Below the pieces are notes generated by a model that saw only the letters and a program-made list of their open reading frames with translations, was not told where the DNA came from and made no database searches. A stretch of DNA of 64,000 nt from Euryarchaeota archaeon RBG_16_67_27 (GTDB taxonomy: Archaea; Thermoplasmatota; Thermoplasmata; RBG-16-68-12): assembly GCA_001800745.1 (NCBI GenBank), contig MGVZ01000029.1, positions 9,133 to 73,132 of the forward strand, in the 5' to 3' direction. Below, piece by piece: positions 3,806 to 56,323 of the stretch; position 1 is the first letter of the stretch; every line of letters begins with the position of its first letter. The position numbers and the translations under genes are program-made.

Positions 3806-3894
3806 GAGGGGGGCCGGTATTAAGGTTCATCGGGTTCGCGCACGACGGTCGGGCCCCGAACGCGCGGTCGTTCGCCCCGGAAGCCTTATGGACG

Positions 3895-4644
3895 ATGCCG
3901 TTCCATGGGAGCCTGTCCATGGCGGGCCCCTTCCCCCACCCGCGGACGGTCTCGCGGACCCGCTCATGGGCCCGGGACCTCCATCGGGCTGCGCTTCTCC
4001 TCGGGATCGGCGGCGCGGTCTACTGGTTCTCGTTCGGCCTCGGTCGCCGGAGCCTGTACCTCCCCGGGCTCGGTACGATGTACGTCGACCTCCTCGCCGC
4101 CTGGATCGCGATTCTCCTCCAGGTCGCCGCGTGGCCGTCGTTGTGGGACGGGCTGCGCGGCCTCCGCGCGCGCCATCCGCGAGACGCGAACCCCCGGATT
4201 GCATGGCGCTCGTTCCTCACGGCGGTCCTCCTCGCCCTCGCGCCACTCGCGGTCCTCCCGCTCCAGTACCACGCGTTCAGCTCGGCGGGCGCCTCAGTCC
4301 TCGTGCTCTACGTGACTGTGTTCCCGTTCGTTCCCTGGACGTTCATCCCTCTCCTCGTCCTCCACGCGATCCTGTTCGGTCGAGTCGCGAACTACCTCGA
4401 GCCTCGCGGGAGGCACGTCGCGGACCTCGGTGCCCTCCTCCTCTTCGCCGTCGCGGCCGTGACGAGCGCGGTGATCATCGAGCATCCAGACCCGAACGCG
4501 TTCATGCGATCGTGGTCCGTCGGCCGAGGCCTCCTGCCCGCCGCCGCGTTCGCTGGGTACGCCCTCATCGCGGTCGGACTCACCCTCCACGTGGTCCCGT
4601 CCGGGGCGAGGGCGCGGGCTCGGGCCGCACACGGCGCGCGCTAG
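3895..4644 (+). CDS. hypothetical multi-pass membrane protein
   Basis: 249-aa ORF with about 6 hydrophobic helices. It sits between cysS and the transsulfuration genes. The true start may be the internal ATG at 3919. Confidence 0.55.
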   Translation: MPFHGSLSMAGPFPHPRTVSRTRSWARDLHRAALLLGIGGAVYWFSFGLGRRSLYLPGLGTMYVDLLAAWIAILLQVAAWPSLWDGLRGLRARHPRDANPRIAWRSFLTAVLLALAPLAVLPLQYHAFSSAGASVLVLYVTVFPFVPWTFIPLLVLHAILFGRVANYLEPRGRHVADLGALLLFAVAAVTSAVIIEHPDPNAFMRSWSVGRGLLPAAAFAGYALIAVGLTLHVVPSGARARARAAHGAR

Positions 4645-10499: not shown

Positions 10500-11609
10500 A
10501 TGGATTCCATCGTGAGGGAAGTCGTCACCCGCGCCGGGGACGAGGCCCGCGTGCCGGACGCCCCGACGGCCCGCGTGGGGATCACCACGGAGGATGCCGA
10601 GCTCGAGCGCATCCTCGCAAGCCTCCGGACGAACATCAAGATCATCGGGATCGGCGGCGGCGGCTCGAACACGATCGACCGGCTCGTCGAGGCCGGCATC
10701 GTCGGTGCGGAGCTGTTCGCATGCAACACGGATGCGCAGCACCTCCTCACGATCCGCTCGCCGCACAAGGTGCTCCTCGGCCGGCGCACGACGCGCGGCC
10801 TCGGCGCCGGGGCGCTGCCCCAGGTCGGCGAGGAAGCGGCACGGGAGGCGTCCGACGAGCTCCGCGCGGTCCTCCACGGCGCGGACATGGTCTTCATCAC
10901 CTGCGGCCTCGGCGGCGGCACGGGCACGGGCGGCGGGCCGATCGTCGCTCAGCTCTCGAAGGAGGCCGGCGCGCTGACGATCGCGATCTGCACCTTCCCC
11001 TTCCGCGCGGAGGGAGCGATCCGGGCGGAGAACGCGGAGTACGGGCTCGAGAAGCTCCGGAACTTCGCGGACACCGTGGTCGTGATTCCGAACGACAAGC
11101 TCCTCGAAATCGTCCCGCGCCTCGCCCTGAACCAGGCGTTCAAGGTCGCAGACGACGTCCTCATGCGCGCGATCAAAGGGATCACGGAGGTCATCACGAA
11201 GCCCGGTCTCGTGAACCTCGACTTCAACGACATCAGGACAATCATGAAGGGCGGCGGCGTCGCGATGATCGGGCTCGGAGAGAGCGACAGCGAGAACCGC
11301 GCGGAGGAGGCGATCGAGGCCGCGATCAACTCCCCGCTCATCGACGTCGACGTGTCCGCGGCGACGGGCGCCCTCGTGAACGTCACGGGCGGGAACGACA
11401 TGTCCGTCTCTGAGGCGGAGAAGGTCGCGGAGATCGTCCAAGGCCGAATCAGCCCGAACGCGCGGATCATCTGGGGCGCGGCCGTCGACCCGGGCGTGCA
11501 GCACAAGCTCCGGGTCATGCTGATCCTGACCGGCGTCCGCTCGAAGCAGATCCTCGGCCCCGGGGAGCACCTCCGCGGGCGCGAGGTCGGCGTGGACATC
11601 GTGCGCTGA
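10500..11609 (+). CDS. ftsZ: cell division GTPase FtsZ (paralog 2)
   Basis: 369 aa with GIGGGGSNT. It is the second tandem paralog, as is typical of Euryarchaeota. Confidence 0.95.
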   Translation: MDSIVREVVTRAGDEARVPDAPTARVGITTEDAELERILASLRTNIKIIGIGGGGSNTIDRLVEAGIVGAELFACNTDAQHLLTIRSPHKVLLGRRTTRGLGAGALPQVGEEAAREASDELRAVLHGADMVFITCGLGGGTGTGGGPIVAQLSKEAGALTIAICTFPFRAEGAIRAENAEYGLEKLRNFADTVVVIPNDKLLEIVPRLALNQAFKVADDVLMRAIKGITEVITKPGLVNLDFNDIRTIMKGGGVAMIGLGESDSENRAEEAIEAAINSPLIDVDVSAATGALVNVTGGNDMSVSEAEKVAEIVQGRISPNARIIWGAAVDPGVQHKLRVMLILTGVRSKQILGPGEHLRGREVGVDIVR

Positions 11610-11619
11610 GGTACGCGAC

Positions 11620-11859
11620 ATGGCAGAGATCCTCGACAAGGGCTGGGAGGTCCAACGTCGGATCGAGGAGCGCACGAAGCGTCTCGGGAAGGGCAAGTAC
11701 GGCCGGATCCTGAAGATGGCCCGCAGGCCGACCTCCGACGAGTACTCGAAGGTCGTCCTGATCACGAGTCTCGGGATCGCCGCGATCGGGTTCGTCGGGT
11801 TCCTCATCTACTGGGCGATGCGGTACGGACCGGATTGGTTCCGCGCCCTCTTCTCCTGA
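11620..11859 (+). CDS. secE: preprotein translocase subunit SecE/Sec61-gamma
   Basis: 79 aa with a single C-terminal TM helix, in the conserved position immediately upstream of spt5/nusG. Confidence 0.8.
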   Translation: MAEILDKGWEVQRRIEERTKRLGKGKYGRILKMARRPTSDEYSKVVLITSLGIAAIGFVGFLIYWAMRYGPDWFRALFS

Positions 11860-11868
11860 GGTGCACGC

Positions 11869-12801
11869 ATGGGACTCCTCGATGACCTCGCGAAGACCCC
11901 GCCAACGAAGCCGGAGCCGAAGCCGGAGGAGCGCCCGGCCCCGGGCCGGTACGGCGTGAAGCTCGAGCTCGCGGAGGAGAAAGTCTCCCTCACCGCGGGG
12001 CAGGCGAAGGACTACGCCGTCGTGGTGACGAACACGGGCACGGAGGACGACGCGATCGTCTTCCGGCTCGACCTCGTGTACAACTCGGAGGTCCCCGAGC
12101 CGCCGGAGTGGATCATCAAGGTCTGGGGCATCGAGGAGAAGGTGTGGGACATCACTTTCACCAAGGTGACGGAGAAGGAGTTCATGCTCATCCCCGAGGG
12201 GCAGCGGGAGATCACCCTCACAATCACCTGCCCGAAAGGCGCGCGGTTCGGGGACCGGCTCAACGTCGTCGTGAACGCGATCTCCCGTGGCGACCCGACC
12301 GCCTTCGACGCGAAGACGTTGTCGTTCACCGCGCGACAGGCCGTCGTCGCCGTGAAGTCGTCGATCGGCCACGAGCGCGCGGTCGCAGATTCGATCTTCG
12401 CGCGGGCGAAGGCGAAGGACCTCGGAATCTTCGCGATCCTCGCGCCCGCGAACCTGCGCGGGTACGTGTTCGTCGAGTCGATGAACCCGGACCGGCTCGA
12501 GGAACTCGTCCGGGGGGTCCGGCGGGCCCGCGGGGTCGTGAAGGGACGCGGCGAGGAGAAGACGATCGCGTTCTCCGACATCGACCTGTACCTCGCCCCG
12601 AAGCCGATCGTGAGCGGGATCATGGAAGGCGACATCGTCGAGCTCGTCGCCGGGCCGTTCAAGGGCGAGAAGGCCCGCGTGCAGAAGATCGACGAGACGA
12701 AGGAGGAGATCACTGTCGAGCTGTTCGAGGCGATGGTGCGGATCCCCGTGACCGTCCGGGGAGACCACGTGCGGGTCCTGCAGAAGGAAGAGGAGAAGTA
12801 G
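11869..12801 (+). CDS. spt5: transcription elongation factor Spt5/NusG with an atypical ~160-aa N-terminal extension
   Basis: The C-terminal ~150 aa carry the NGN domain (IFAILAPANLRGYVFVE) and a KOW motif (GDIVELVAGPFKGEKARVQKID). The same uninterrupted ORF has an extra N-terminal region (TAGQAKDYAVVVTNTGTEDD...ITLTITCP) resembling a beta-sandwich/CARDB-like domain. Confidence 0.8.
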   Translation: MGLLDDLAKTPPTKPEPKPEERPAPGRYGVKLELAEEKVSLTAGQAKDYAVVVTNTGTEDDAIVFRLDLVYNSEVPEPPEWIIKVWGIEEKVWDITFTKVTEKEFMLIPEGQREITLTITCPKGARFGDRLNVVVNAISRGDPTAFDAKTLSFTARQAVVAVKSSIGHERAVADSIFARAKAKDLGIFAILAPANLRGYVFVESMNPDRLEELVRGVRRARGVVKGRGEEKTIAFSDIDLYLAPKPIVSGIMEGDIVELVAGPFKGEKARVQKIDETKEEITVELFEAMVRIPVTVRGDHVRVLQKEEEK

Positions 12802-12807
12802 CCCGGC

Positions 12808-13455
12808 TCACGGGGGCGCGGCGGTCGTCCCATTCGTGTAGAGCCGCACGCCGTTCCAAACGGCCCATGCGAGGGCGCTGAAGATCGTCGCGTGCTCCGT
12901 CGCCTTCGCGAGCTCGACGTTCGGCAGGATTCCCGTGTACGTCACGATGAAGACGACCGCGATCGCGAGCGTCACGACGGAGAGGACGCCGGAGACGCGG
13001 CCGAAGATCCGGGACCGGTACAGCGGCATGGCGTACAGGGCGACCGTGGCGGTCAGGGAGAGGAAGAACCCGATCGACACGATCCCGTGCATGTTGTTCG
13101 GGGACTCCTCCGGGAACACGCCAACGCCGATCAGGAACGCCTCCGCGACAAGGAGGACAGAGACGCCCGCGGTCCCCGTGCGTCCTCCGACGGCCTGGCC
13201 CAGCGCGACGGCGAACGGGAGGAAGAGGAGGCCCGCGAGGATGCAGGCGGCGTTCAGGGTCCAGGGGGCCGGCGCCGCGGGATGCCCGAGGTCGCTCACC
13301 CAGTGCGCCGTGACCCCATAGCCCGGATAGAGGGCGACGCCCACGACGAAGAGGGAGATCCAGAGGACCCCGGCCGTCAGGCCCGCGATCGCGCCGACCC
13401 GAGGCGGGACGAGCGTGGCCACGGGGACGTCATCGCGTCTCGCAAGAAAAGGCAT
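12808..13455 (-). CDS. hypothetical membrane protein (DUF998-like)
   Basis: 215-aa ORF with 6 predicted TM helices, convergent with spt5. Confidence 0.55.
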   Translation of the reverse strand: MPFLARRDDVPVATLVPPRVGAIAGLTAGVLWISLFVVGVALYPGYGVTAHWVSDLGHPAAPAPWTLNAACILAGLLFLPFAVALGQAVGGRTGTAGVSVLLVAEAFLIGVGVFPEESPNNMHGIVSIGFFLSLTATVALYAMPLYRSRIFGRVSGVLSVVTLAIAVVFIVTYTGILPNVELAKATEHATIFSALAWAVWNGVRLYTNGTTAAPP

Positions 13456-13481: not shown

Positions 13482-14222
13482 ATGTCCGCGTCGTCCGTTC
13501 CCCACCCCGTGGACACGCCAATGGGTCCCCTTCCCGGAGGCCTTCGTCTCGGCGCGCGGATCCGCGCTGCCCTCGACGCCGTGGGGCCGTCCGGGCTGCG
13601 CGCCGCGATCCAGGCGTTCCTGCTCGGGCCCGAGCACTTCCGCGCCTTCCGGCTCCTCGCGAAGGTCGAGCCGATGCTCCTTTTCCCGCAAGACCGCGCG
13701 AGCCTGTCGGACCTCGATCGAATGCTCGTGGAGCCCGGGGACATCTACGCGCACCTGCCGACCCTCTTCCGGCTCACGCGGGACGGCCCGCGTCCGCGGG
13801 TCCTCGAGCTCGGGACGCGGTCGGGAGACTCCACGCTCGCGCTCCTCCTGGCCGCGAAGGCGATCGGCGGGCGTGTGACGAGCGTGGACATCGAGCCGTG
13901 CCCTGAGGCGACCGCACGCGTGAAGGCCGCGGGTCTCGCTCCGCACTGGACGTTCCTCCTTTCCGACGACCTCGGGCTCCCGTGGCGGGACCCGATCGAC
14001 CACCTCTTCATCGACACCTCCCACCGGTACGAGCACACGCTCGAAGAGCTCCGGAAGTTCGAGCCGTTCGTCGTGCCCGGCGGCGTGATCACGCTCCACG
14101 ACACGACGAGCCATCCCGAGGTCTGGCGCGCGGTGGAGTCGTACTTCCGCGGGCGCTCGGACATCGAGGTGTACCGGTACTTCCACAACAACGGATTCAC
14201 CGTCGCCGAGAAGCGGGGCTGA
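13482..14222 (+). CDS. class I SAM-dependent methyltransferase (CmcI/O-MTase-like)
   Basis: VLELGTRSGDSTLALLLAAK (motif I) .. GRVTSVDIEP .. HLFIDTSH. Confidence 0.7.
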   Translation: MSASSVPHPVDTPMGPLPGGLRLGARIRAALDAVGPSGLRAAIQAFLLGPEHFRAFRLLAKVEPMLLFPQDRASLSDLDRMLVEPGDIYAHLPTLFRLTRDGPRPRVLELGTRSGDSTLALLLAAKAIGGRVTSVDIEPCPEATARVKAAGLAPHWTFLLSDDLGLPWRDPIDHLFIDTSHRYEHTLEELRKFEPFVVPGGVITLHDTTSHPEVWRAVESYFRGRSDIEVYRYFHNNGFTVAEKRG

Positions 14223-14323
14223 CGGCGTCGTCCCCCGCTGCTGTGGGATCCGCGGCTTGGTGGGGTGGGTCGAAACCTTTATCTCGCTCCGGAAGCTCGG
14301 GGCGCCGCACCGAGGTTCCACGT

Positions 14324-14803
14324 GTGACCGAGAGACTCCAGGTCCTCGTCGACGGAGGCAAGGCAACGCCGGGTCCACCCCTGGGCCCCGCCCTCGGGCC
14401 CCTCGGGCTGAACATCGTCGAGGTCCTGAAGGCGATCAACGAGAAGACGAAAGCGTTCGAGGGGATGAAGGTCCCCGTCACCCTCCTCATCGACCCGAAG
14501 ACGAAAGGGTACACGATCGAGGTCGGCACGCCGCCGACGTCTGCCCTCGTGCTCAAGGAACTCGGGGTCGAGAAGGGCTCGGGCGACGCGGGCAAGACGC
14601 GCGTCGGGAACCTCTCCCTGCAGGCCGCGATCCGGATCGCGAAAATGAAGGCGGAGGCGATGCAGGGGACGTCCCTGAAGGTCCGCGTCCTCGAGGTCGT
14701 CGGCACCTGCGTGTCGATGGGCGTCACCGTCGAAGGCAAGCCCGCGAAGGAGGCGTCGAAGGAGATCCGCGCGGGGAAGTTCGACAAGGCCCTCGCCGGG
14801 TGA
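14324..14803 (+). CDS. rpl11: 50S ribosomal protein L11
   Basis: GTG start. (M)TERLQVLVDGGKATPGPPLGPALGPLGLNIVEVLKAINEKT is the canonical L11 N-terminus. The longer ATG-started ORF (from 13982) adds a non-homologous Arg-rich leader. Confidence 0.9.
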   Translation: MTERLQVLVDGGKATPGPPLGPALGPLGLNIVEVLKAINEKTKAFEGMKVPVTLLIDPKTKGYTIEVGTPPTSALVLKELGVEKGSGDAGKTRVGNLSLQAAIRIAKMKAEAMQGTSLKVRVLEVVGTCVSMGVTVEGKPAKEASKEIRAGKFDKALAG

Positions 14804-47273: not shown

Positions 47274-47444
47274 TCACGGTCCGTGGAAATCGCACGTCGG
47301 GCAGTGGTACGCCACGGACTGGTCCCGACAGCGCGCGCAGCGTCCGATTCTCGTCTTGCCGCAGCTCGGGCACCCGAAGACCGTCGCGCCCTTGCCGATG
47401 AGGACGGCACCACAGGAGGAGCAGCGCGATTCCGCGGGACTCAC
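47274..47444 (-). CDS. small Zn-ribbon protein (COG2888-like, conserved EF-1beta partner)
   Basis: Not in the ORF track. GTG start. (M)SPAESRCSSCGAVLIGKGATVFGCPSCGKTRIGRCARCRDQSVAYHCPTCDFHGP carries three CxxC pairs. It sits 9 bp upstream of ef1b on the same strand, with a TATA box just upstream. Confidence 0.7.
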   Translation of the reverse strand: MSPAESRCSSCGAVLIGKGATVFGCPSCGKTRIGRCARCRDQSVAYHCPTCDFHGP

Positions 47445-48112: not shown

Positions 48113-51100
48113 ATGCGCGAGCTCATCGACGCGTTCTTTCGCGAGCGATCGATCGTGAACCACCACACCGCCTCGTTCAATGACTTCCTTCCCACGATCG
48201 ACAACCCGAACTCGCGGATGCAGCGGATCGTGGACAACCACCGGTCCTCGCCCGAGGACGAACGCCGGGGGATCATCAAGCTCGACGAGGACCGCACGGA
48301 AGGCGACATCATCGAGATCCGGATCGGGCGGAAGCGGGACGAGCGCGGGCGGATCGACATCGAGGCGAAGCCGACGATCGCCCTCGGCCTCCCCGTCGTC
48401 AAGGAGGCGAACGGCGCCACCCACGCGCTCTCGCCCATGGAAGCCCGCCTCCGGAATCTGAACTACACCGCGCCGATTTACCTCGACTTCACGGTCATCG
48501 AGAACGGCATCGAACGGGAGCCGGAGCGCGTCCACATCGGGAACCTCCCGATCATGACGAAGTCGAAGAAGTGCCTTCTGTACAAGGAGAACCTGGAGAC
48601 GGAGGGCGAGCTCACCCTCGACGAGTATCGCCGGAAGCTCATCGAGAAGGGCGAGGACCCGTGCGACCCGGGCGGGTACTATATCATCGGCGGCACGGAA
48701 CGCACGCTCATCTCCCTCGAGGACCTCGCGCCGAACCGCGTCCTCGTGGAGTTCAACGAGCGCTACGGGAGGAAGGTCGAGGTCGCGAAGGTCTTCTCCC
48801 AGAAGGAGGGGTACCGCGCCCTCACTCTGATGGAGAAGAAGAAGGACGGTCAGCTCATCGTATCCGTGCCGACGGCATCCGGCCAGATCCCGTTGATCAT
48901 CCTCATGAAGGCACTGGGGATGGAGAAGGACTCCGAGATCCACGACGCGGTCGTGTCCCACCCCGCGATGGCGAACATCGTCTACGCGAACATCGAGGAA
49001 GTGAAGAACAAGAAGCTGTACCCGCCGAACGGCATCCTCACGCGGGACGACGCGATCAACTACCTGGAGAAGAAGTTCGCGACGGGCCAGGCGAAGGAGT
49101 ACCGGACGAAGAAGGTCGAGTCGATCCTCGACCGGTCTCTCCTCCCCCACCTCGGCGACGCCCGTGAAGACCGGATCAAGAAGGCGATCTTCCTCGGCCG
49201 CGTCGCGCGCACGGTCCTCGAGCTCTCCCTCGGGAAGCGCCGCGAGGACGACAAGGACCACTACGCGAACAAGCGCCTCAAGCTCGCGGGGGACCTCATG
49301 GAGGACCTCTTCCGGGTCGCGTTCGCGAACCTGATCAAGGACCTCAAGTACCAGCTCGAGCGGTCGTACGCTCGGCGGCGCGAACTGAAGATCGCGTCCG
49401 CAATCCGGCCGGACCTCCTCACGCAGCGCCTCCTCCACGCCCTGGCGACGGGGAACTGGGTCGGCGGACGGGCGGGCGTCAGCCAGCTTCTCGACCGGAC
49501 CTCGAACATGTCCACCCTGAGCCACCTGCGACGGGTGACGAGCCCCCTCACGCGGTCCCAGCCGCATTTCGAGGCGCGCGACCTGCACCCGACGCAGTGG
49601 GGCCGGCTCTGCCCCAACGAGACGCCGGAAGGCCAGAACTGCGGCCTGGTGAAGAACTGCGCTCTCGTCATCGACGTGTCCGAAGGCTTCCCCGACGACG
49701 AGGTGAAGATCCTCCTCGCGGACCTGGGCACGAAGCAGGTGAAAGGTCAGCAGACGACGTACACGCGGGTGTACGTGAACGGCGACCTCGTCGGGCTCCA
49801 CGAGGACCCGCACATGCTCGTCGCCGAGATCCGGGAGCGGCGGCGGAGCGGCCTACTCAGCCATGAGGTCAACGTCCGGTACGACGAGAACATGGGGGAG
49901 ATCATCATCAACTGCGACGAGGGCCGCATCCGCAGGCCCCTCCTCGTCGCGAAGGAGGGCCACCTCTCCCTGACGAAGAAGCACCTCGAGGACCTTCGTC
50001 TCGGGCGCACCCGCTTCTCCGACCTGATCCGGAACGGCGTTGTCGAGTGGATCGACGCGGAGGAGGAAGAGGACACGTACATCGCGATCTACCCCTACGA
50101 CGTCCCGAGCCGCTGCAAGGAGTGCAAGCGTCCCCTGAGCCGGAACGACGTGTCGTGGGTGAACATGGGCGCGAAGGAGGACGAGATCGAGCTCGAGTGC
50201 CAGGAGTGCCACAAGTCGTTCCGCGTGAAGCCGCATGTCTCCCGAGAGACGACGCATCTCGAGGTCGACCCGATGGTCATCCTCGGCGTCGCCTCGGGCC
50301 TCGTCCCGTACCCCGAGCACAACTCGTCCCCTCGCGTCACGATGGGCGCGGGGATGGCGAAACAGTCCCTCGGCCTCGGGGCGAGCAACTACCGCGCCCG
50401 CCCGGACACGCGGAGCCATCTCCTCCACTACCCGCAGAAGCCGCTCGTCCAGACGGACTCGATGCCGTATGTGTCGTTCAACGAGAGGCCCGCGGGACAG
50501 AACTTCGTCGTCGGCGTGATGTCCTACCATGGCTACAACATGGAGGACGCGATCGTGATGAACAAGGCGTCGATCGAGCGTGGCCTCGGCCGGTCCTCGT
50601 TCATGCGGACGTACCGGGCGGAGGAGCGGCGATACCCCGGCGGCCAGGAGGACCACTTCGAGATCCCTTCGCCCGACGTGCGAGGCGCTCGGGCCGACCT
50701 GAGCTATGCGAGCCTCACCCCGGACGATGGTCTGATCTCCCCGGAGGTCCTGGTCACGGGGGGTGAGGTGCTGATCGGGAAGACGAGCCCTCCGCGGTTC
50801 CTGGAGGAGGAGACGGACTTCCTCACGCCCCAGAAGCGTCGGGAGACGTCGATCACGGTCCGCCACGGCGAGAGCGGATGGGTCGACTCCGTCATGCTCA
50901 CGGAGAGCGAGAACGGGTCGAAGCTCGCGAAGGTCAAGGTCCGGGACCTCCGCGTCCCGGAGCTCGGGGACAAGTTCGCCTCCCGCCACGGGCAGAAGGG
51001 CGTAATCGGGCTGATCGCGTCCCAAGAGGACATGCCGTTCACGGGCCAGGGCATCATCCCCGACCTGATCATCAACCCCCACGCGATCCCATCGCGCATG

Positions 51101-51702
51101 ACCGTCGCGCACGTCCTCGAACAGATCGGCGGCAAGGTCGCCTCGTTCGAGGGCCGGGACATCGACGGGACCCCGTTCAGCGGCGAGCGCGAGGAGTCCC
51201 TCCGGAAGGCGCTCGAGGAGGCCGGCTTCCGGTCGAACGGAAAGGAGATCCTGTACGACGGGAAGACGGGGCGGATGATTCCCGCGGAGATCTTCATCGG
51301 CGTGATCTACTACCAGAAGCTCCACCACATGGTCTCCGGGAAGCTCCACGTGCGGAGCCGCGGACCCGTGCAGATCCTCACGCGTCAGCCGACGGAGGGG
51401 CGCTCCCGCCAGGGCGGCCTCCGGTTCGGTGAGATGGAGCGAGACTGCCTGATCGGCCACGGCGCGGCCATGGTGATCAAGGACCGCCTGCTCGACGAGT
51501 CGGACGGGACGATCCAGTACGTCTGCGGGAACCCCGACTGCGGCCACTTCGCGATCAAGGACCGGAAAGGGAACCTTCGCTGCCCTGTGTGCGAGAACAC
51601 GTCGAAGATCTACCCGGTGCAAACGTCGTACGCGTTCAAGCTCCTCCTTGACGAGCTCCTGTCCCTCGGCGTCGCCATGCGCCTGCAGCTGGAGGACCTC
51701 AA

Positions 51703-51706
<4 letters not shown>
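48113..51706 (+). CDS. rpoB: DNA-directed RNA polymerase subunit B (unsplit)
   Basis: 1197 aa. It carries all Rpb2 conserved regions in a single ORF and ends with a [11 protein letters not shown] zinc ribbon. Confidence 0.97.

Positions 51707-56323
<4,617 letters not shown>

Follow-up and report, generated by a model that had tools for sequence, protein, structure and literature searches.

Spt5 is a universal transcription elongation factor, and its archaeal version is usually regarded as the minimal form, an NGN domain followed by a KOW domain. Canonical archaeal Spt5 proteins, such as those of Methanocaldococcus jannaschii, Pyrococcus furiosus, and Thermococcus kodakarensis (PDB 3p8b, 4zn1, and 9bct), are 147–152 aa long and begin at the first strand of the NGN domain, and the solved archaeal chains comprise full-length proteins of 147–163 aa plus two NGN fragments of 91–92 aa. 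We analyzed the spt5 gene in a 64,000-nt stretch (the window, 68% GC) of contig MGVZ01000029.1 from Euryarchaeota archaeon RBG_16_67_27, an uncultured, high-GC member of the Thermoplasmata of the RBG_16_67/68 type. This gene encodes a protein of 310 aa with 157 more N-terminal residues than the canonical form, made up of a tail and an immunoglobulin (Ig)-like domain. The identity and reality of this feature are very likely, and as a whole we are fairly confident that it is best explained as a genuine orthologous Spt5 with an ancestrally fused and retained front module that probably has a protein-interaction role. A whole branch of Thermoplasmata, including methanogens of gut and rumen that belong to the Methanomassiliicoccales, thus carries a conserved third domain on Spt5, with a short N-terminal peptide conserved in part of the branch.

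Apart from the two-domain architecture of ~150 aa, everything that could be tested places the protein in the Spt5 family. It shares with canonical archaeal Spt5 the NGN and KOW domains, the Spt4-binding glutamate, and a genomic position near secE and rpl11. Pfam Spt5-NGN (PF03439) matched residues 161–226 (E 4e-14, 52.8 bits against a cut-off of 22.4), KOW (PF00467) matched residues 253–284 (E 2.3e-8), and the NCBIfam archaeal Spt5 equivalog TIGR00405 matched residues 161–309 (E 2.7e-49, 166.9 bits against a cut-off of 69.95) over positions 2–145 of its 145-position model. In structure alignments, residues 159–308 align end to end with the canonical proteins at ~40–46% identity, and all solved archaeal chains aligned only to residues 157–308. 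In the AlphaFold2 (AF2) model, the predicted local distance difference test score (pLDDT) falls below 50 at residues 227–232 and 237–245, within the linker between NGN and KOW. The NGN–KOW part is 55–73% identical to the window protein across the clade described below, and the KOW stretches GPFKGEKARV and EEITVELFEAMV are invariant among close relatives. Residue E203 (in GYVFVES) aligns with the GYIFVEA motif of P. furiosus and T. kodakarensis Spt5, and is invariant in the alignments of both close and distant clade members. A glutamate at the equivalent position is universally needed for Spt4 binding by Spt5 (PMC7593976), and the invariance of E203 therefore argues that Spt4 is still bound.

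The original prediction had given the extension an Ig/CARDB-like fold, and structure prediction, fold comparison, and profile homology to CARDB/NEW3-type repeats all bear this out. Modeled alone, the domain is a confident ten-strand all-beta sandwich at residues 30–155 (pLDDT 84.8, predicted template modeling score [pTM] 0.75), with per-residue pLDDT mostly 76–97 and 82–97 in the predicted strands. In the full-length model (pLDDT 76), the last sandwich strand (residues 146–156) and NGN strand 1 (residues 158–164) are almost contiguous across a junction of one or two residues. Foldseek searches of the PDB with the sandwich returned Ig-like sandwiches only, including the ASH/PapD-like domain of CEP192 (E 3.7e-7) and a Pyrococcus CARDB domain (3idu, E 3.5e-4), with further matches to GH123 N-domains, PorA-N, the ASH domain of OCRL, and complement MG domains. 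None of the solved structures pairs an Ig-like sandwich with an NGN domain. The tail that precedes the sandwich has a pLDDT of 40–53 over residues 1–20, and AF2 leaves the N-terminal peptide undocked, as would suit a short motif that binds another molecule. Of 77 species genomes, 48 encode a Spt5 that opens with a [GS]-[LI]-[LFI]-[DESTG] motif, and several others have looser versions of it. No signal peptide was detected, and the window N-terminus, MGLLDDLAKTPPTKPEPKPEERP, lacks a hydrophobic signal sequence.

The sandwich, referred to below as the N-domain, is acidic, with a net charge of −6 and an isoelectric point (pI) of 4.7 in the window protein, and this is true of nearly all of 79 lineages (median net charge −5, pI 4.9, range −14 to +1). 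The tail reaches a net charge of −15 in L050, the one low-GC lineage that was tabulated. Several residues of the module are strongly conserved among the 79 aligned sequences: W81 is present in 100%, P122-x-G124-x3-G128-D129 in 84–99%, and E80 is also kept, while the junction A155-R156-Q157 is conserved in 81–92% of sequences. A subgroup of relatives of 359–380 aa (P0080, P0085, P0087, P0103, P0114, P0117, and locus L011) carries a charged, helix-like insertion of ~47 aa in a loop of the Ig-like domain, after window residue ~99 (e.g., HHQEVKTRKEFIDRQVKELVDKGQPVPDDLAKERDSLVEKFREAEEGLS). This insertion suggests that the loop is exposed, and it has perhaps been elaborated as an interaction surface.

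The sequences that match the N-domain indicate where it may have come from. No Pfam or NCBIfam family matched residues 1–160 above threshold, the best being fn3_5 (E 0.058), and a profile of the N-domain found no meaningful match among PDB sequences; used alone in a word-indexed search, the N-domain retrieved nothing but pieces of the Spt5 fusion. When 1.84 billion representatives were searched exhaustively with a HMMER profile, 652 matches emerged, and those with a single N-terminal matching stretch were all Spt5 fusions or their fragments. The remaining matches were multi-repeat proteins of ~350–4,000 aa (mostly >800 aa) with 4–20 matching stretches each (E 1e-29 to 1e-9). Two of these that were checked contain CARDB, NPCBM_assoc (NEW3), and FixG_C domains above threshold; two carry an organism name, in both cases a Thermoplasmata archaeon, and some others are annotated as uncharacterized membrane proteins. 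One relative (P0185) scored just under threshold for NPCBM_assoc (23.6 against 24.4) and FixG_C (24.7 against 25.6), and a fragment (P0128) has a precomputed match to PF10633. The extension shares with CARDB, NPCBM_assoc, and FixG_C repeats both the type of beta-sandwich and the hallmark NxG...DD and PxGxxxGD strand motifs; on this evidence, together with the modeled fold, it is a single CARDB/NEW3-type Ig domain, distantly homologous to those repeats. Such domains occur as many tandem copies in large proteins (most of 800–4,000 aa), some of them annotated as membrane proteins, whereas the window protein carries a single copy on a cytoplasmic factor. The sandwich was probably recruited from surface-protein repeats like those of giant Thermoplasmata surface proteins, in which case a typically extracellular Ig-type repeat would have been co-opted into the cytoplasmic transcription apparatus.

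We found that the three-domain architecture is widespread in Thermoplasmata. Scanning GTDB at one genome per species gave 559 related loci, and the best 80 of these were re-read from the DNA. In 78 of these 80 species genomes (genomic GC 38–73%), the frame is open for at least 260 aa and reaches NGN without a stop, and no relative has a stop codon that separates the two parts or an extension encoded as a separate open reading frame (ORF). The 80 genomes include many metagenome-assembled genomes (MAGs) titled Thermoplasmata archaeon, along with UBA10834, Methanomassiliicoccales, Methanomassiliicoccus sp., RumEn M1, Methanomethylophilaceae, Ca. Methanoplasma, and Ca. Methanarcanum hacksteinii, and the clade includes Methanomassiliicoccaceae. 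With the full protein as query, more than 120 clusters at 55–100% identity were recovered that cover its whole length; they are 307–318 aa long, with a subgroup (the one with the loop insertion) of 359–380 aa. A Methanomassiliicoccales profile added 120 further clusters of 264–295 aa, including those of Ca. Methanoplasma termitum (277 aa), Ca. Methanarcanum hacksteinii, and Ca. Methanogranum gryphiswaldense; automatic annotation calls all those with a source name Spt5 or NusG, except for two labeled ribosomal protein L24. Even distant members at 33–43% identity retain the N-domain, NGN, and KOW. Identity of the extension falls to 17–33% across the clade; ratios of nonsynonymous to synonymous substitution rates (dN/dS) against close relatives are 0.15–0.33 for the extension and 0.09–0.20 for NGN–KOW, from which we conclude that the extension is under purifying selection.

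Among the relatives, P0182 (406 aa, JGI/Logan) has ~100 additional residues inside NGN (residues ~186–278), which match Ribosomal_L1 (PF00687) slightly below its threshold (E 2e-7, 31.1 bits against 32.2). The gene rpl1 normally lies just downstream in the spt5 gene cluster, and this stretch may be either an assembly chimera or a real insertion.

The spt5 gene also lies where an orthologue is expected. At the related loci, secE is directly upstream of spt5 in 78 of 80 and ftsZ is upstream in 73 of 80, while a tblastn search with the window rpl11 protein placed rpl11 directly downstream in 77 of 80, mostly within 30 nt. This synteny marks the gene as an orthologous Spt5 at its canonical place, with no space for a separate upstream gene, and the interval between secE and NGN at the related loci contains no separate ORF.

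The reading frame of the window gene is as the original prediction had placed it, to the nucleotide. It had also held that no internal methionine or plausible alternative start lies between the N-terminus and NGN; the statement on methionine is slightly inaccurate, as there is an internal ATG at 12184 (Met106), along with several in-frame GTG and TTG codons. This methionine falls within the beta-sandwich and is not conserved. ATG 11869 is the sole start preceded by a Shine–Dalgarno-like motif (5 nt upstream). We rejected an internal start that would yield a canonical short Spt5, given the location of this sole internal ATG and the absence of a Shine–Dalgarno-like motif at GTG162. The NCBI record OGS47169.1, from the same organism and in the same 90% cluster, is 281 aa long and starts 29 residues later, at GTG 11956 (Val30). 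This codon has no Shine–Dalgarno-like motif in front of it, and a start there loses the MGLLDD N-terminus that is conserved in relatives from ATG 11869, so ATG 11869 is the better supported start. The G+C content at third codon positions (GC3) is uniformly high across the tail (0.89), the extension (0.95), and NGN–KOW (0.94), and the whole ORF therefore looks coding.

Several relatives, L010 among them (AVMAVKTS), have a methionine exactly at the canonical Spt5 start, equivalent to Val160–161 of the window protein, which has Val-Val. In L010, the first ATG at the canonical start position gives a 145-aa product. A second, short isoform is thus possible in those lineages.

We propose that the ancestor of a large Thermoplasmata clade fused a module in front of NGN and that this module has been kept since. 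The module would consist of a short conserved N-terminal peptide of the MGLLDD type, a flexible Pro/Glu/Lys linker, and the acidic Ig-like sandwich. The NGN domain with Spt4 would still dock on the clamp coiled-coil of RNA polymerase (RNAP), which is canonical in the Rpo1N encoded in the window, and KOW would still recruit its usual partners. The elongation complex of Pyrococcus shows Spt5 H12 in contact with upstream duplex DNA (PMC11162788). This residue, a few positions past the P. furiosus N-terminus, aligns to H168 of the window protein, and because the sandwich is fused to NGN strand 1, it is expected to project from the elongation complex at its upstream face, probably as an accessory protein–protein docking platform, with the tethered peptide acting as a second short binding motif. 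Its acidity makes protein docking more likely than DNA binding, and the partner could be an RNAP surface or a lineage-specific factor. The original prediction had seen in the extension a possible lineage-specific domain on the clamp-binding factor; the architecture holds, in a clade wider than was implied, and the interaction role is one that we infer.

Other explanations for the extension can be weighed against these observations. The original prediction had allowed that a lost stop codon joined a small upstream gene to spt5, or that a base error created the fusion, and an artefact of this kind (lost stop, frameshift, or mistake in sequencing or assembly) would account for the departure from the expected ~150 aa and sit well with the shorter 281-aa version in the same cluster at NCBI. 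The ORF, however, is continuous across nearly all of the re-read species genomes and hundreds of metagenomic protein clusters, the conserved synteny leaves no separate ORF between secE and NGN, dN/dS is well below 1, GC3 is uniform, and the junction residues are conserved; together, these refute a lost stop or base error, and we give an artefact practically no probability. It is very unlikely that the sandwich replaces Spt4 as a built-in stabilizer of NGN after Spt4 was lost. Its direct fusion to NGN strand 1 would suit such a role, and the 64-kb window has no gene for a Spt4-like zinc ribbon, an observation that is uninformative as the window is a small fraction of the genome. Against this, the Spt4-binding glutamate is invariant clade-wide, and Spt4 is reported in most archaea (PMC13289920).

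Accessory domains elsewhere in the NusG/Spt5 family offer the closest functional precedent, since the NusG proteins of Thermotoga maritima (domain DII, PDB 2xhc) and Aquifex aeolicus (PDB 1m1g) likewise carry a lineage-specific added globular domain. Some bacterial NusG proteins have an accessory domain that is basic and binds double-stranded DNA and RNAP (PMC5224480), and with an attachment point near the upstream DNA duplex (PMC11162788), the sandwich could similarly be a nucleic-acid-binding stabilizer of the elongation complex. We consider this highly improbable: DII uses a basic patch for DNA (PMC5224480), whereas the N-domain is acidic; 2xhc and 1m1g align with the window domain at template modeling scores of 0.16–0.24 and root-mean-square deviations of 18–23 Å, so that neither bacterial domain is structurally similar or homologous to it; and the bacterial domains are inserted within NGN, while the sandwich lies wholly N-terminal to NGN strand 1. 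Judging by the MAG sources, the hosts are also mostly mesophiles of soil, sediment, and gut, so an argument from thermophilic adaptation fails. The class Thermoplasmata is reported to lack the genes for TFE alpha and beta, and TFE competes with Spt4/5 for a shared clamp site (PMC4495717; PMC7289017), which would allow the Ig-like domain and peptide to be a Thermoplasmata innovation tied to TFE loss, through clamp/stalk-side control or partner recruitment, or to the handling of chromatin proteins behind the polymerase; put this broadly, the idea is unlikely. The narrower forms, in which the module takes over clamp/stalk-side control or handles chromatin proteins as the N-region of eukaryotic Spt5 does, are rather improbable. 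The N-terminus of eukaryotic Spt5, upstream of NGN, is an acidic extension reported to bind histones (PMC8886531), and the tail and sandwich are acidic as well, strongly so in the tail of L050. The eukaryotic region is intrinsically disordered, however, and has no detectable homology to the module, while the window protein is disordered only over its first ~28 residues and is folded thereafter. The link to TFE or chromatin is also purely correlative, and the statement on TFE is mostly based on Thermoplasmatales, which lie outside the Spt5 extension data gathered here.

Several observations weigh against an ancestrally fused, retained front module with a protein-interaction role, or against parts of it. 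The window copy scores below every Pfam threshold for Ig families, so its family assignment depends on profile and fold similarity. The full-length AF2 model reaches a pTM of only 0.55 and does not fix the orientation of the sandwich relative to NGN. The N-terminal peptide motif is missing from Methanomassiliicoccales. One close relative, L074 (JAUVEQ010000174.1, isolate CSMAG_327), encodes at 3821–4456 a Spt5 of 211 aa that lacks the sandwich while its NGN–KOW is 62% identical to the window protein; its N-terminus is a 65-aa acidic disordered tail with SLDDL, which resembles the MGLLDDL N-terminus. Only 121 nt separate the end of the secE match from the start of spt5 at this locus, so the absence is real and L074 is a natural deletion variant, which makes the sandwich dispensable in at least one lineage.

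The sequences that carry the extension are already public and labeled as plain Spt5, and automatic annotation sometimes cuts off their N-terminus. We found no earlier description of a Spt5 extension of this kind in full-text searches, and the supplement of a 2026 elongation-factor survey does not mention Thermoplasmatota. Since the class is reported to lack TFE, the clamp competitor of Spt5, the fusion raises the question of how clamp control and factor recruitment are organized in these archaea. If the link to TFE loss were true, a single factor would have roles in both initiation and elongation, and interest in the module would be higher if either this link or a specific partner were demonstrated.

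In the window itself, spt5 belongs to a conserved gene order that is interrupted on its downstream side. Two genes, for a DUF998 membrane protein and a methyltransferase, lie between spt5 and rpl11; judged by the arrangement at related loci, they seem to have been inserted locally into the conserved cluster. Coordinates of these and the other features are given in Table 1.

Table 1. Features of the spt5 locus and of other genes in the window (positions within the 64,000-nt stretch).
Feature	Position	Strand	Basis and remarks
ftsZ	10500–11609	+	Pfam Tubulin and FtsZ_C; opens the conserved ftsZ-secE-spt5-rpl11 order
secE	11620–11859	+	Weak Pfam SecE match (E 0.027); stops 9 nt before the spt5 ATG
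Shine–Dalgarno-like GAGGTG	11858–11863	+	Read from the sequence; 5 nt before the ATG; overlaps the secE stop codon (11857–11859)
spt5 ORF	11869–12801	+	310 aa; ORF list and sequence
N-terminal peptide MGLLDD and Pro/Glu/Lys-rich linker, residues 1–28	11869–11952	+	Predicted disordered by AF2
Acidic Ig-like beta-sandwich (CARDB/NEW3/FixG_C type), residues 29–157	11953–12339	+	AF2, Foldseek, and profile search
Spt5 NGN domain, residues 158–227	12340–12549	+	PF03439 and TIGR00405; RNAP clamp-binding domain; contains E203
Flexible NGN–KOW linker, residues 228–250	12550–12618	+	Low pLDDT; 5-aa insertion relative to Pyrococcus (alignment gap)
Spt5 KOW domain, residues 251–310, and stop codon	12619–12801	+	PF00467
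DUF998 membrane protein	12808–13455	−	Between spt5 and rpl11
Class-I S-adenosylmethionine (SAM) methyltransferase (Methyltransf_24)	13482–14222	+	Between spt5 and rpl11
rpl11	14321–14803 (start approximate)	+	ORF translation; usual downstream neighbor, here with two inserted genes between
HVO_2753-like small zinc finger	47274–47444	−	56 aa, four CxxC; PF07754 (E 5.6e-16); not Spt4
Rpo2	48113–51706	+	1,197 aa, against 1,117 aa in P. furiosus
Rpo1N	51703–54492	+	Clamp coiled-coil canonical; ~45-aa C-terminal extension

The window was also inspected for genes that might act with the module. No further copy of the N-domain was found elsewhere in the window, and no other ORF in it has an MGLLDD-type N-terminus. 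Of the two small cysteine-rich ORFs that were considered as Spt4 candidates, one is the HVO_2753-type zinc finger and the other an unrelated membrane protein. The clamp of Rpo1N is canonical, with no lineage-specific insertion that could dock the sandwich. Rpo2 carries ~43 additional residues near residues 665–709 (at the position of P. furiosus residue ~630), as well as ~22 additional residues near its N-terminus.

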